Assembly: GCA_963847895.1 (NCBI GenBank)
Contig: CAWKBO010000002.1
Coordinates: 33,722 to 97,721, forward strand
DNA length: 64,000 nt
From: an uncultured Gemmatimonadales bacterium
GTDB taxonomy: Bacteria > Gemmatimonadota > Gemmatimonadetes > Gemmatimonadales > GWC2-71-9
Direction: 5' to 3'
Shown here: piece by piece, positions 21,307 through 58,940 of the stretch
Layout: every line of letters begins with the position of its first letter
Position numbering within the stretch: position 1 is the stretch's first letter
Translations under genes and position numbers: made by a program
The notes under the pieces: model-generated
Seen by the model: the letters and a program-made list of their open reading frames with translations, nothing else
Database searches by the model: none
Told to the model about the DNA's origin: nothing

Positions 21307-21355
21307 GATCGGAGATCCGAGATCGGATCTCAAATCTCTGATCTCAGGTCTCCGA
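21307..21355. repeat. heptamer-repeat-armed hairpin A (putative bidirectional terminator)
   Basis: GATCGGA GATCCGA GATCGGA TCTCAAA TCTCTGA TCTCAGG TCTCCGA. The arms pair with a few G-U wobbles. It lies between the cytochrome c stop (21295) and the arsN-arsC stop (21330-21332, inside the loop). Confidence 0.6.
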
Positions 21356-22223
21356 ACTCGGCCACCTCCCGGCTCGTCATCACCGCCAGCGGCAAGGCGA
21401 GGAGTCGCGCGATCCGACGCTCGAATTCCTCCGCGACTGCATCGAATGCGGCCTGACGCATCGCGGGATCGCCGACCGCCGCCGGGTCGGGCATCCCCCA
21501 GTGCAGCGTGGCATGGCCGGGTAGTACCGGGCACGATTCGCGGGCGTCGTCGCAGACGGTGATTACCAGGTCCCAGTCGGTTCCCACCGCGTCGATCGAC
21601 TTGCTCTGCCGATCGCGCCAGTCGATGCCAAGGCGCCGCAACGTCTCGATCGCCATCGGGTGGGGCCCTGCACCGGGATGGGTGCCCGCACTCGCCGACT
21701 CCACCAGGCCAGCCCCGCGGTGCCGGAAGAGCGCTTCTGCGAGCTGGCTCCGGGCGCTGTTGGCGGTGCAGAGCACCAGGATCCGGAACGGGAGCACTCG
21801 GCGTGCCATCGCCGTCGCGCTCGCCGGACAGGCGTGGGAGAATTCGTCGGTGGCACGCACCGCGTCGGGAACCCGGTCGCGCTCCACGCGACGGAAGCCG
21901 AATCGGCGGAAGAATTCCTCGGCAGTCTCGGTGAGCAGCCAGAGCCTGGTGATTCCGGCGGTGCGGGCCCCCTCCAGCAGCTGGGCCACCAATCGATGAC
22001 CGATGCCGCTCCCACGTGCCGACGGGACCACCACCAACGACCGGAGCAGCGCGTCGTCCCCGCACCGTTCAAGGCCGCCCACTGCTACGATCCGCGACCG
22101 ATCCTCGGCGACGACGAAGCCGCTCACCGCGTCGCGGACACCATCGACCGGGAGCGATGCCTCGCGGAGGAGCTGTTCGATGGAAGAGAGATCGGAGTCT
22201 CGGGCCGTGCGCAAGGTGGTCAT
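21330..22223 (-). CDS. arsC: fusion protein: ArsN2-like GNAT N-acetyltransferase + LMW-PTP-type arsenate reductase ArsC
   Basis: The N-terminal half (VVAEDRSRIVAVGGLERCGDDALLRSLVVVPSARGSGIGHRLV) is GNAT-like. The C-terminal half has ILVLCTANSARSQLAEALF (CX5R P-loop) ...VITVCDDARESCP. Confidence 0.8.
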   Translation of the reverse strand: MTTLRTARDSDLSSIEQLLREASLPVDGVRDAVSGFVVAEDRSRIVAVGGLERCGDDALLRSLVVVPSARGSGIGHRLVAQLLEGARTAGITRLWLLTETAEEFFRRFGFRRVERDRVPDAVRATDEFSHACPASATAMARRVLPFRILVLCTANSARSQLAEALFRHRGAGLVESASAGTHPGAGPHPMAIETLRRLGIDWRDRQSKSIDAVGTDWDLVITVCDDARESCPVLPGHATLHWGMPDPAAVGDPAMRQAAFDAVAEEFERRIARLLALPLAVMTSREVAEFGDLRSEI

Positions 22224-22288
22224 GAGGCACTCATGAAAGAGGGCGGCACCGCCGGGCGAGTTGGCATCGTGGTGGCCATGCCCGGATC

Positions 22289-22308
22289 ATATCAACTTTG
22301 GTTGATAT
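22289..22308. promoter_or_regulatory. candidate operator palindrome ATATCAAC-TTTG-GTTGATAT
   Basis: Perfect 8-4-8 inverted repeat in the AT-rich divergent intergenic region between arsN-arsC and cydA. A third TTCAAC half-site follows at 22309-22314. Confidence 0.35.
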
Positions 22309-22357
22309 TTCAACCCTCCCTTGCGCCGCGGTCGGTCGGGTTGAAGAATCAAGGAGG

Positions 22358-22377
22358 CTTGTGAAATGTTTCACAAG
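22358..22377. promoter_or_regulatory. CRP/FNR-family-type palindrome CTTGTGAAA-TG-TTTCACAAG (core TGTGA-N6-TCACA)
   Basis: Perfect 9-bp arms ending 9 nt upstream of the cydA GTG (22386). It sits immediately after a strong AAGGAGG (22351-22357). Confidence 0.45.
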
Positions 22378-22389
22378 AATTTTCCGTGA
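22366..22389 (+). other. possible 7-codon upstream ORF (MFHKNFP) overlapping the cydA start codon
   Basis: The ATG at 22366 lies 8 nt downstream of AAGGAGG. Its TGA (22387-22389) overlaps the cydA GTG (22386-22388). cydA itself has no obvious SD. Confidence 0.25.
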
Positions 22390-56560: not shown

Positions 56561-57279
56561 GACGCTCCGGGAGTGAAGGAGTCCACCACATCGACGGTCC
56601 GCCGGACCGCCTCGAGATAGCTGGCAAAGAGTTCGGGGCTGCACGACCACTCGGCCTCACGACGCCGGGCAGCCACCTCACCGACGGCGGCCGCGGTCGG
56701 CCCCAGCACCGCCTCGAGGACAGCGATTGTCTCCGCCGCCCCCGCCCCGGGATCGCGGCCGAGCAGCACCGCCGTGGCCCGCAGCAGCACGAGCAGTTCC
56801 GAGATCGAGGCCGAGGCGAAGCCCCCCAGCACCGGCATGGCACCACTGAAGCGGGTGTAGGCCTGGCGCAGGTGCACCAGCTTCCCCCGCAGCGACGTCT
56901 CGAGCGCCCGGCGCAGGTCGGCCGGGTCGACCACCAGGGGCGCCACGGGGTCGACGCCGGCCAGCACCCGGTACGCGAGGCGCATGTCGGTGATCTCGAC
57001 CGGGAAGACGTCGGTGGCCCGCTGCCACTCGTCGCGACCGATGAGCAGCGGCGGCGTCCAGCCGCGATCGTGCCAACCCTCGACGGCGGGCGTGAGGCGG
57101 CGCAGGGCCGCCGGCTCGGCGCCGTCAAGCACCAGCAGCAGGTTCACGTCGGAGCGCCGGGCATCCCAGTCGCCGCGGGCCGCCGACCCGTAGAGCACCG
57201 CTGAACAGCCGGGAGCCGCCCCGCCCTCGAGCGCCGCCACCAGCTGGGTGAGACCCTGTTCGAGTGCTGCTGCATCCAT
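56557..57279 (-). CDS. nucleotidyltransferase-domain protein with C-terminal helical domain
   Basis: AVLYGSAARGDWDARRSDVNLLLVL is a Pol-beta-type NTase motif (GS...D.D). The C-terminal ~130 aa are helical (KNTase-C/HEPN-like impression only). Confidence 0.6.
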   Translation of the reverse strand: MDAAALEQGLTQLVAALEGGAAPGCSAVLYGSAARGDWDARRSDVNLLLVLDGAEPAALRRLTPAVEGWHDRGWTPPLLIGRDEWQRATDVFPVEITDMRLAYRVLAGVDPVAPLVVDPADLRRALETSLRGKLVHLRQAYTRFSGAMPVLGGFASASISELLVLLRATAVLLGRDPGAGAAETIAVLEAVLGPTAAAVGEVAARRREAEWSCSPELFASYLEAVRRTVDVVDSFTPGAS

Positions 57280-57282
57280 CGC

Positions 57283-58137
57283 CTAGAAGCTCCTTCCTGC
57301 GCCGCCACCGCTGAAACCGCCACCACCACCGAAGCCGCCGAAACCGCCACCGCCACCGAACCCGCCGCCGCCAAAGCCACCGCCGAATCCCCCACCGCCG
57401 CGGAAGCCGCCCAGCGCCCCCCAGAGGATCGGACCGAGCAGGTCGGGATGACGGCGTCGGCCGCCGCCACTGCCGCCCCGCGGTCCGCCCCGGCCGGACA
57501 CGGCGATCAGCACCGCGACCACGATCATGCCGAACAGGATGAACAGCAGCGCCAACTTGCCGATCCCCGGGCCGGCTTCGCGGGGGAGCACGAGCGTGGA
57601 GTCGGTGGAGCCGAGCGCGGTGGCGATCTCGTCGGTGAGCAGCGTGGTACCGACGTTGATGGCATCACCGTAGTCGCCGTCGCGGAGCGCCGGCAGCATC
57701 CGATCGGAGATCTGGCCCGCGCGAGCATCGGTGAGGAACCCCTCGACTCCCTGACCCGTGCTGATGTAGAGCGCACCACGATGCTCCGACGTGCTCGGCA
57801 CCAGCAGCAGCACCACGCCGGCGTTGCGGCGTCGGTCACCGACCGGATAGTCGCCACCCACCCCCCACCGGCGCCCGATGGCCAGGGCCACATCACCGGG
57901 AGCATGGTCGCCGATGGTGGTCAGGGTGACCACGGCGATCTCGCCGCCGGTGGCCTCGCGCAGGTGATCGAGCCGGGCGGTGACCACCTGGGCGACGCTG
58001 TCCGGAATGATCGCCGCGACGTCGGTGACCGGCCCCGCCGGGCTGGCCGGAAAGAGCGAGTCGACCCCGGCCTGGGCGACCAGCGGGGCGGCGAGCACGA
58101 GTTGGAGGGCCAGCGCGGCCCCGGTAGCTTTCCTCAT
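57283..58137 (-). CDS. TPM-domain protein (YgcG-like) with TM segment and Gly/Phe-rich tail
   Basis: The start is taken at MRKATGAALALQLVLAAPLVAQA. VTDVAAIIPDSVAQVVTARLDHLREATGGEIAVVTL, a TM segment LALLFILFGMIVVAVLIAV, and a tail GGFRGGGGFGGGFGGGGFGGGGGFGGFGGGGGFSGGG. Confidence 0.8.
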   Translation of the reverse strand: MRKATGAALALQLVLAAPLVAQAGVDSLFPASPAGPVTDVAAIIPDSVAQVVTARLDHLREATGGEIAVVTLTTIGDHAPGDVALAIGRRWGVGGDYPVGDRRRNAGVVLLLVPSTSEHRGALYISTGQGVEGFLTDARAGQISDRMLPALRDGDYGDAINVGTTLLTDEIATALGSTDSTLVLPREAGPGIGKLALLFILFGMIVVAVLIAVSGRGGPRGGSGGGRRRHPDLLGPILWGALGGFRGGGGFGGGFGGGGFGGGGGFGGFGGGGGFSGGGAGRSF

Positions 58138-58207
58138 CCGTGGGTGTCCATCCTCGCCAGGTGTCGTGTGCGTGGATGGCCGAAAGATACTCGCACCAGG
58201 AGACTCC

Positions 58208-58810
58208 GTGACGCACCGCTGGTTGATCGCACTGGCCGTCGCCACACTCGCCCCGTCGCTCTCGGCGCAGGACCCGCTCACCGCCCGCACCAAGGGACGG
58301 GCCGATGCACCGGTCACCGTGTACGAGATGAGTGACTTCCAGTGCCCCTTCTGCCGGCGTTTCGCGGTTGAAACGTTCCCCACCATCGAGAAGGAGTACA
58401 TCGCGACCGGCAAGGTCCGCTGGATCTTCGTCAACTTCCCGCTCCCCCAGCTCCATCCCAACGCGGTCGCGGCGGCGGAGTTCGCGATGTGCAGCGCGCG
58501 GCAGGGAAAGTTCTGGCCGGCGCACGACCGACTCTACGCCGAGCAGGAGCGCTGGGCACCGCTGAAGGACCCCGGCGCCTACTTCCTCTCCCTGACGGCC
58601 CCGCTGAAGCTCGACCAGGAGACGCTGCTCGCCTGCCTCCAGAGTGGGGCCACCCGCACCACCATCCAGCAGGATGCGCAGGGCGCCGTGCGGGCCGGGG
58701 CCGGGGCCACGCCGACGTTCTATATCGAGGGCGGGTTGATGGACGGCGCCCAGCCGATCGGGGTGTTCCGGATGGTGCTCGACTCGATCATCAAGGCCAA
58801 GAAGGGATAG
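58208..58810 (+). CDS. DsbA-family thiol:disulfide oxidoreductase (secreted)
   Basis: GTG at 58208, a signal peptide, FQCPFCRRF (CxxC), and ...TPTFYIEG. Confidence 0.8.
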   Translation: MTHRWLIALAVATLAPSLSAQDPLTARTKGRADAPVTVYEMSDFQCPFCRRFAVETFPTIEKEYIATGKVRWIFVNFPLPQLHPNAVAAAEFAMCSARQGKFWPAHDRLYAEQERWAPLKDPGAYFLSLTAPLKLDQETLLACLQSGATRTTIQQDAQGAVRAGAGATPTFYIEGGLMDGAQPIGVFRMVLDSIIKAKKG

Positions 58811-58940
58811 ACGATAGACGATAGACGATAGACGTATGCCCTTGGACGAATGGCCTTTCGGGTATCCGGATTGCCCGGTTGGAACTCGGCCGTCGGCACT
58901 GTCCATCGTCTATCGTCTATCGTCTATCGTCTATCGTCTC
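58806..58940. repeat. heptamer-repeat-armed inverted repeat F (putative bidirectional terminator)
   Basis: GATAGAC x4 (58806-58833), a 68-nt spacer, then CCATCGT + CTATCGT x4 + CTC (58903-58940), which is the exact reverse complement. It spans the gap between the dsbA-like stop (58808-58810) and the CPBP stop (58939-58941). Confidence 0.75.

Follow-up and report, generated by a model that had tools for sequence, protein, structure and literature searches.

This analysis concerns a group of stem-loop elements found in a 64-kb stretch of a Gemmatimonadota genome (uncultured Gemmatimonadales bacterium, contig CAWKBO010000002.1, positions 33,722 to 97,721), which is referred to below as the window. 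We conclude with high confidence that these elements are inverted pairs of heptanucleotide simple-repeat arrays, each pair forming one long stem-loop directly after a stop codon. Many of them are built round a short GC-rich core hairpin. As to how they arose, we lean slightly towards an origin at the DNA level by template switching and 7-nt slippage. That they act in RNA as 3' hairpins, either as partial terminators or as exonuclease barriers, is a more tentative proposal suggested by their position. Taken as a whole, this explanation seems to us about equally likely to hold or to fail. The layout can be read directly at six loci of the window, designated A to F, in which a heptamer array is followed by a spacer or an inner GC hairpin and then by the inverted heptamer array:

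21306..21357, locus A, a small hairpin with degenerate arms AGATCGG/AGATCCG, inverted ATCTCNN and a 9-nt loop
24691..24743, locus B, 5' arm: about eight copies of GAACGGA/GATCGGA with the variant first unit TGAACGG
24744..24783, locus B, core GC hairpin: GTACGAGGCCGGCA...TGCCGGCCCTCGTAC
24784..24838, locus B, 3' arm: about seven degenerate inverted units TCCGATC/TCCGTTC
40396..40477, plus strand, locus C: three to four copies of GGTGAAT (first unit GGTGACG), a 13-nt loop and five copies of ATTCACC
43752..43786, locus D, 5' arm: three copies of TGAGTCC, then the diverged units TGAGACG and TGGGGGG
43795..43825, locus D, core GC hairpin: GGGCCGGCATC...GATGCCGGCCC
43833..43860, locus D, 3' arm: CCCCCCACGTCTCA, then two copies of GGACTCA
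55911..55989, locus E (weak): GTGAG-type units on the left, CTCATCG/ACTCACG on the right
58806..58939, locus F: 4.1 copies of GATAGAC (58806-58834), a 66-nt centre with small hairpins and 5.6 copies of GTCTATC (58901-58939)

Tandem Repeats Finder, used together with a separate period scan, placed period-7 arrays at 21306-21324, 24687-24742, 40396-40426, 40442-40477, 43752-43776, 43843-43860, 58806-58834 and 58901-58939. Nine period-7 arrays were observed in the window, whereas a dinucleotide-preserving simulation averaged 0.26 over 100 runs and never exceeded 2; the window is thus at about 35 times the chance level. Period-5 arrays were at the chance level (8 observed, 10.1 expected), and no arrays of periods 8 to 10 were found in the window scan. 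The arrays of loci A to F are all intergenic except where the right arm of A overlaps a gene, and the sole coding period-7 array (39516-39553) lies in a linker of the E2 acyltransferase gene. F, B, D and C are the longest inverted repeats in the whole window, and the stems of D (28 nt) and F (29 nt) are perfect.

RNA folding energies were -33.1 kcal/mol for A (z -3.7 against shuffled sequences), -96.2 kcal/mol for the whole of B (z -9.4), -37.4 kcal/mol for C (z -4.5), -91.3 kcal/mol for the whole of D (z -12.1) and -77.3 kcal/mol for F (z -7.7). The heptamer-armed hairpin is strong at B, C, D and F and modest at A. Locus E (-33.8 kcal/mol, z -0.65) folded no better than shuffled sequence and is probably a decayed remnant at most. 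A preliminary description of these loci had counted five as clear and E as weak; this stands for B, C, D and F and more modestly for A, while the hairpin at E does not stand out from shuffles. The common architecture that it had proposed lies far beyond chance by stems, folding and array number alike. Two of its particulars had to be given up. The arms do not carry equal copy numbers (4.1 and 5.6 in F, 3.6 and 2.6 in D), and the heptamer is not different at every locus, as GATCGGA occurs in both A and B and locus E holds the TGAGTCC of D together with a variant of the GGTGAAT of C.

An Rfam search of the whole window at the gathering threshold gave no match, and loci A to F do not represent a known RNA family in that database. 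No tRNA or tmRNA genes were found in the window. An assembly artefact can be ruled out because the architecture recurs in dozens of independent assemblies made with different assemblers.

The comparison set consisted of the window and 160 fetched loci (1.98 Mb in total) from Gemmatimonadota, Acidobacteriota and some Bacteroidota; the fetched loci carry labels such as L002 and L085. The nearest E2 relatives of the window are Gemmatimonadota metagenome-assembled genomes with at most 81% identity. An array was taken to have a hairpin partner when an inverted array lay within 250 nt, and the counts were compared with a null. The results by period were as follows:

Period 5: 171 arrays and 2 strict inverted pairs; the partner test is not informative here, as its threshold lets too many arrays through (117 of 168, and 81 in the null)
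Period 6: 76 arrays and no strict inverted pair; inverted partner for 18 of 73 arrays, against 12 in the null
Period 7: 122 arrays and 26 strict inverted pairs; inverted partner for 75 of 122 arrays (61%), against 3 (2%) in the null
Period 8: 32 arrays and 1 strict inverted pair; inverted partner for 7 of 31 arrays (23%), against 1 in the null

The inverted layout is nearly specific to period 7, which is dominant and not exclusive; at periods 5 and 6 any excess over the null is small or absent. Heptamer-armed hairpins are abundant in Gemmatimonadota and Acidobacteriota: inverted heptamer elements number about 36-41 per Mb in the Gemmatimonadota loci, 78 in the window, 58 in Acidobacteriota and 4 in Bacteroidota. 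Octamer versions exist in some Gemmatimonadales (L003 4083-4180 and L005 5251-5569), with ACGGCTGG in seven copies facing an inverted partner and GGACGGGC paired with CCGCCCGT. The conservation of period 7 claimed at the outset therefore holds as dominance across the 1.98 Mb, with these octamers as departures. An unpaired octamer array of 8.5 copies lies directly after the E2 stop in L022 (11294-11361). A single unit, GTGAACA, is found at three different junctions of one relative genome (L125 6251-6333 and 8852-8930; L126 6971-7051 and 18983-19061), which indicates that units can be common within one genome, as in Xanthomonas. A bias acting throughout the genome, or copying from one locus to another, could account for this sharing.

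More than the period and the layout is conserved, contrary to what had been supposed. Among 49 distinct elements, the 5' arm is purine-rich in 41, and it has more G than C in 41 and more C than G in only 1 (42 informative elements; p = 2e-11). The motif GTGA occurs in 21 of the 49 units, where 3.6 would be expected from shuffling the letters within units, and its complement occurs in none. A stop codon within the unit reads in all three frames because 7 is not a multiple of 3. Such stops are enriched on the sense strand, being present on that strand only in 31 elements and on the antisense strand only in 8 (p = 3e-4). The units of 7 of the 49 have no stop on either strand, and all seven still have more G than C in the 5' arm.

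The attachment of the elements to gene ends was then read from the flanking genes. These were fixed with Pfam and codon-position GC, which also corrected automated gene-context labels that were wrong for one flank each of D and F:

Locus A: cytochrome c gene (plus), stop 21295; GNAT/phosphatase gene (minus), stop 21330
Locus B: CydB gene (plus), stop 24692; POT transporter gene (minus), stop 24843
Locus C: E2 acyltransferase gene (plus), stop 40401; E3 lipoamide dehydrogenase gene (plus), start 40510
Locus D: unassigned plus-strand gene, stop 43754; M20 peptidase gene (minus), stop 43865
Locus E: C-terminal piece of MetRS (plus), stop 55917; LemA gene (minus), stop 55990
Locus F: DsbA-like gene (plus), stop 58810; Rce1-like gene (minus), stop 58939

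The stems of A, B, C, D and F start 0-13 nt past a stop codon. In four of these loci the stop lies inside the first, sometimes variant, unit: TGAACGG in B (CydB stop at 24690-24692), GGTGACG in C (E2 stop at 40399-40401), TGAGTCC in D, where the first TGA of the 5' arm is itself the stop of the plus-strand gene, and GATAGAC in F (TAG of the DsbA-like gene at 58808-58810). Locus A starts 11 nt past the cytochrome c stop, and its right arm overlaps the last nine or so codons of the minus-strand GNAT/phosphatase gene. At the other end, B and D each finish 4 nt short of the stop of the facing gene (POT transporter and M20 peptidase, respectively), and the last base of F overlaps the Rce1-like stop (58939-58941, minus). 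The convergent elements of the window occupy the entire gap between two stop codons. The same tie holds beyond the window, where element edges mostly lie -9 to +5 nt from a flanking stop, and on this point the preliminary description was correct.

Its placement of five loci between convergent genes is accurate for the window, in which A, B, D, E and F are so arranged and C lies between two same-strand genes, 33 nt before the start of E3. It is a peculiarity of the window, however. Among 48 elements, 32 have same-strand neighbours, 7 have convergent ones and at most 3 have divergent ones. On inspection two of these last three proved to be same-strand and one (L013 16063) was ambiguous, so that at most 1 of the 48 is divergent. 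At the same-strand junctions the next start codon is 20-35 nt away.

This proximity to stop codons raises the possibility that the elements modulate the termination of translation, as REP (repetitive extragenic palindromic) sequences do. A ribosome would have to melt a stem lying 0-13 nt past the stop, and slow termination, mRNA cleavage or trans-translation would then tune the output of the upstream gene, while stops in all three frames would prevent ribosomes from entering the stem. REP sequences in E. coli placed no more than 15 nt from a stop codon reportedly stall ribosomes and induce trans-translation, according to work by Liang, Rudd and Deutscher in 2015. The stem positions in A, B, C, D and F, the stop within the first unit in B, C, D and F and the enrichment of sense-strand stops (31 elements against 8) are in keeping with such a role. 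However, some elements lie 12-52 nt from the stop, 8 units carry stops on the antisense strand only and 7 of the 49 carry none. We give this explanation a small chance.

Orthologous junctions show that the arms come and go and that the unit turns over. At the E2-E3 junction, which holds locus C, the unit is GGTGAAT in the window, TAAGTCG in L085, GAGAACG (11 copies) in L002, GTGAGCG in L006, AGGAGAG in L008 and GTGAGAG in L021; L003 has an octamer version there, and several other relatives have no element. At the junction upstream of dnaE, no two of five genomes share a unit. At the M20 junction, which holds locus D, the nearest relatives (L082 and L083, 86% amino-acid identity) carry the core hairpin alone, GGGCCGGC.TCC..GGATGCCGGCCC, whose stem matches the core of D and whose flanks are non-complementary. 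Cores with heptamer arms of other units are found at this junction in L115, L122 and L140 and plain hairpins in L091, L094, L095 and L098, and most other relatives have no gap between the genes. The near-identical loci L125 and L126 differ in single-unit variants. The drift of the unit with retention of the architecture, which had been put forward as a test of the idea, is thus observed.

Armless GC hairpins also occur within the window, and neither of the following two has a T tract:

41939..41965, plus strand, plain GC hairpin after the E3 stop: CTGCCCTCGCG-tcg-CGCGAGGGCAG
2123..2148, plain GC hairpin with an 11-bp stem in another convergent gap: GGGCCGCCCAG...GGGCGGCCC

At the position matching the first of these, the syntenic L085 has inverted arms of four GAGAAGC units. 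The second is the armless form of the 3'-end hairpin in the genome of the window. Orthologous junctions therefore carry an armless GC hairpin, a heptamer-armed hairpin with another unit or nothing, which indicates that the plain and the heptamer-armed forms are interchangeable.

The near-identical pair L140 and L141 differ in the copy number of the right arm. In both (L140 11448-11553, L141 5200-5315) about 14-15 copies of CGTCTCA on one side face 3 complementary copies on the other, which leaves some 80 nt of unpaired C-rich, G-poor repeat resembling a Rho loading site. Such arrays, (CGTCTCA) x14 in L140 for example, bring to mind another explanation, in which the heptamer, notably of the GTGA type, is a protein-binding unit and its period is selected directly. 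The candidates would be Rho, loading on the C-rich 3' arm, or a cold-shock-domain protein, bound once per 7 nt or so. The GTGA motif and the strict polarity do look like recognition features, and CspB is noted to bind heptamer repeats, one protein to each unit (MacGregor 2015, PMC4679880). The units are, however, very diverse (GATAGAC, TGAGTCC, GAACGGA, AGGAGAG), the octamers of L003 and L005 break the period, and base pairing of the two arms makes them inaccessible as single strands in most elements. We think it quite improbable that protein binding accounts for the arrays.

The origin towards which we lean would begin with an ordinary GC hairpin at a gene 3' end, without a T tract. Replication errors at this palindrome would copy one flank onto the other by template switching, a known mechanism of quasipalindrome correction, and the stem would lengthen outward. 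Slippage by 7 nt would then make the arms grow and shrink and would homogenise the units within an element. Together, copying and slippage would lead to units that differ between loci and drift at orthologous loci while the period and the layout are kept. Arm growth would halt at coding sequence; for this reason arrays would start on stop codons, and units with a sense-strand stop in all three frames would survive best beside genes. The perfect stem of D spans two diverged inner units that are mirrored exactly across the arms, and this, together with the non-complementary flanks of its armless relative, points to copying from arm to arm. The copy-number difference between L140 and L141 and the inequality of their arms (3 copies against about 14) point to slippage.

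In the transcript, the armed element may behave like the plain hairpin that it replaced, as a 3' stem-loop that needs no U tract. In a convergent gap it would stop or slow RNA polymerase arriving from either side, and in all contexts it might block 3'-to-5' exonucleases or offer a site to RNase III. In the same-strand setting it could be a partial terminator at most, since E3 and dnaE begin 20-35 nt downstream and leave no room for a promoter.

Several points weigh against the proposal of hairpin-templated growth and an RNA 3'-end role. Template switching has been inferred from the perfection of the stems, and termination or stabilisation from position alone. The same-strand setting is that of 32 of the 48 elements, and the downstream gene, such as E3 or dnaE, must be read through the element, which excludes full termination at these junctions. 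The transition mismatches in the stems do not favour G.U over A.C pairs on the sense strand (31 would-be G.U and 40 would-be A.C), so that no compensation at the RNA level was detected, in a test of low power. The period of 7, the G-rich 5' arm and the frequency of GTGA are left unexplained by the model and suggest a specific constraint or machine.

A bolder view would turn these last features into the main point. The excess of heptamers in bacteria would be the trace of a specific process that builds repeats on hairpin templates at gene 3' ends, not of generic slippage, with a fixed polarity in which the 5' arm is G-rich, of GTGA type and with a stop in every frame. This process would yield a class of stem-loops that extend themselves, found across phyla and serving as U-tract-independent, two-way insulators of transcription and translation where canonical terminators are lacking, and the polarity, the GTGA bias and the link to period 7 would be signatures of an enzyme or binding protein. 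We regard this as improbable.

At the other extreme, the arms might be a neutral by-product of slippage and palindrome correction at any intergenic hairpin, with only the core having a function and the position at stop codons merely reflecting short intergenic gaps. The patchy presence of the elements is consistent with this, most M20 junctions being gapless and many E2-E3 junctions having no element. So are the perfect, 'young' D and F beside the decayed, 'old' A, B and E, the very unequal arm lengths (as in L140) and the lack of G.U bias on the sense strand. On the other hand, unbiased slippage does not predict a polarity of 41 to 1 or 21 GTGA units in place of 3.6. The element also persists at the E2-E3 junction in at least seven lineages and at the dnaE junction in five despite turnover of the unit, and it is hardly ever found in divergent gaps, which usually offer the longest non-coding stretches. 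We consider neutrality a rather unlikely explanation.

The kind of element is partly known, and the preliminary description was mistaken in taking it for an undescribed class. Both heptamer repeats and convergent GGGAATC pairs in Xanthomonas had already been reported (PMC4692102, PMC4679880). What is new here are the locus-specific units, the core hairpins, the new phyla and the strict polarity. According to later accounts of Mrazek et al. 2007, heptanucleotide repeats rank first in abundance among long simple-sequence repeats in most bacterial genomes and lie mainly in non-coding DNA, with polymerase slippage as the proposed cause (PMC4679880, PMC4692102). The class comprises units of 5-11 nt in head-to-tail order, and the arrays of the window resemble it in being longer than chance and, as is usual for units whose length is not divisible by 3, mainly outside coding sequence. 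In those accounts the Mrazek work treats arrays singly, whereas 61% of the heptamer arrays here are one arm of an inverted pair.

The closest structural precedent comes from Xanthomonas, in which GGGAATC arrays form 70-75 convergent pairs per genome (Rehm et al. 2015, PMC4692102). About 90% of these pairs are intergenic, they lie nearer to the upstream open reading frame (ORF; mean 28 nt) and they are rare between divergent genes; their length and sequence vary between related species, and their function is not established (PMC4692102). The repeats of X. campestris and X. axonopodis share with ours the closely spaced heptamer arrays on opposite strands, the capacity to form a stem-loop and the G-rich array in first place. 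The intergenic location near the end of the upstream ORF and the rarity between divergent ORFs are likewise found here. They differ in that one family, GGGANTN, dominates there and has been read as G-quadruplex (G4)-forming, while the units here vary by locus and most cannot form a G4. In addition, many elements here enclose a separate GC core, their arrays start on stop codons and they occur in Gemmatimonadota, Acidobacteriota and some Bacteroidota. The GGGAATC/GGGANTN unit itself is absent from the window, and only GGGAATG in L157 comes near it.

A regulator acting through G4 or other non-B DNA, as proposed for the G-rich heptamers of Xanthomonas and Nostoc, nevertheless has to be considered. 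The 5' arm is G-rich, units with G runs occur in relatives (GGGAATG in L157, AGGGGAA in L115) and GGGAATC repeats form G4 in vitro (Rehm et al. 2015, PMC4692102). By folding, however, the hairpin is the obvious structure. No canonical G4 can form from the window units GATAGAC, TGAGTCC, GGTGAAT and GAACGGA, which lack four GGG runs. We consider a G4 role most unlikely.

The closest functional analogy is offered by REP sequences and bacterial interspersed mosaic elements (BIMEs), which are likewise palindromes outside genes, placed at 3' ends where the neighbouring genes are convergent or on the same strand. REP sequences stabilise upstream mRNA against 3' exonucleases, can be weak terminators and affect translation when they lie within 15 nt of the stop. 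They form multi-copy families with a conserved sequence and are linked to RAYT (REP-associated tyrosine) transposases. Here, in contrast, the arms have a common architecture and polarity, not a common sequence, and are internally tandem-repetitive. A single multi-copy palindrome of the REP/BIME type was not found, the only common motif being GGCCGGCA-N11-TGCCGGCC. This motif, followed by CTCGT, is present in the cores of B (24750-24776) and D (43797-43823); these are its 2 copies in the 64 kb, where 0.01 would be expected by chance, and the two cores could belong to a small family of terminator-like core hairpins. The separation of the elements from REP/BIME and from CRISPR (clusters of regularly interspaced short palindromic repeats) that had been drawn earlier is supported by the architecture and by the lack of a common sequence. 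A CRISPR array would have direct repeats of 23-47 nt with unique spacers of like length between them, and the units here are 7 nt long, contiguous and inverted between the halves.

The shared core motif of B and D, the GATCGGA unit of both A and B and the GTGAACA arms at three loci of one relative genome might also suggest a miniature mobile element, similar to REP or to a miniature inverted-repeat transposable element (MITE), that inserts at gene ends. Against this, there is no common full-length sequence and no signature of terminal repeats with target duplication, the core is present in 2 copies in the 64 kb, and orthologous junctions show a gradual change of unit, not the presence or absence of one sequence. 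Membership of a MITE family was rejected on the architecture and the absence of a common sequence among the loci, and insertion of a mobile element has in our view very little probability.

Intergenic tandem heptamers are known from other bacteria as well. The short tandemly repeated repetitive (STRR) sequences of heterocystous cyanobacteria have the units CCCCAGT, TTGGTCA and CAACAGT; the units of the window are different, and the organism belongs to Gemmatimonadota. Both the STRR sequences (Mazel et al. 1990) and the TAACTGA repeats are like our arrays in being intergenic tandem heptamers. The TAACTGA repeats have stops in all three frames and overlap ORF ends by about two units at most, and the Beggiatoa genome has one indirect repeat among 170 sets (MacGregor 2015, PMC4679880). 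Both kinds differ from the present elements in having a fixed unit, mostly in direct arrays and mainly just upstream of start codons.

With regard to terminators, a GC stem-loop directly 3' of the gene is present, but no T run follows the stem, and the elements are not canonical intrinsic terminators. Scans of the window between 20 and 60 kb for a hairpin plus a T tract found no excess (6 against 4.6 expected and 0 against 4.8 expected), and such a scan picked up none of the loci A to F. Hairpin-only ('I-shaped') intrinsic terminators occur in high-GC Actinobacteria, and bidirectional terminators were reportedly described by Ju et al. in 2019. The elements resemble both in being GC-rich 3' stem-loops between convergent genes without a U tract. 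They differ from them in that their stems, at 20-45 bp, are far longer than usual and built of tandem repeats, and in that many lie inside operons, where full termination is impossible.

No literature on such elements in Gemmatimonadota was found. The predominance of heptamers among long simple repeats in bacteria has been without an explanation since 2007, and the Xanthomonas pairs are without a known function. Most heptamer arrays here are half of a hairpin, and only around period 7, which makes the old question testable. Are these repeats built by a hairpin, and do they serve high-GC phyla without U-tract terminators as working terminators or as protectors of RNA ends? Software that calls genes or predicts terminators in metagenome assemblies of Gemmatimonadota and Acidobacteriota would gain from recognising them.

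Some further features were noted beside the loci. Upstream of cydAB, whose CydB end flanks locus B, the divergent gap has a lower GC content (0.54) and contains two perfect palindromes, ATATCAACTTTGGTTGATAT and CTTGTGAAATGTTTCACAAG, at 22289-22308 and 22358-22377, with a sigma-70-like promoter match between them; CTTGTGAAATGTTTCACAAG has the TGTGA-N6-TCACA layout of CRP/FNR-type operators. Within the E2 coding sequence, the period-7 array in one linker consists of 4.6 copies of CCCGTCA (39516-39561); another linker, about 90 nt upstream, holds an inverted partner with 81% complementarity (39406-39437), an echo of the heptamer-hairpin architecture inside a coding region. Both genes at locus E look frameshifted, whether as pseudogenes or through assembly indels. 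Pfam matches to the C-terminal region of MetRS fall in two overlapping frames (55248-55910 and 55354-55917), and LemA is split across the frames 55958-56650 (profile positions 2-62) and 55990-56391 (profile positions 57-149). Finally, complex repeats of 9, 15, 18 and 27 nt (CCGCCGAAACCGCCACC...) lie on the plus strand at 57300-57420. From their position and composition, they are apparently a coding repeat, rich in glycine, close to the end of the TPM-domain gene on the minus strand (57283-58461).

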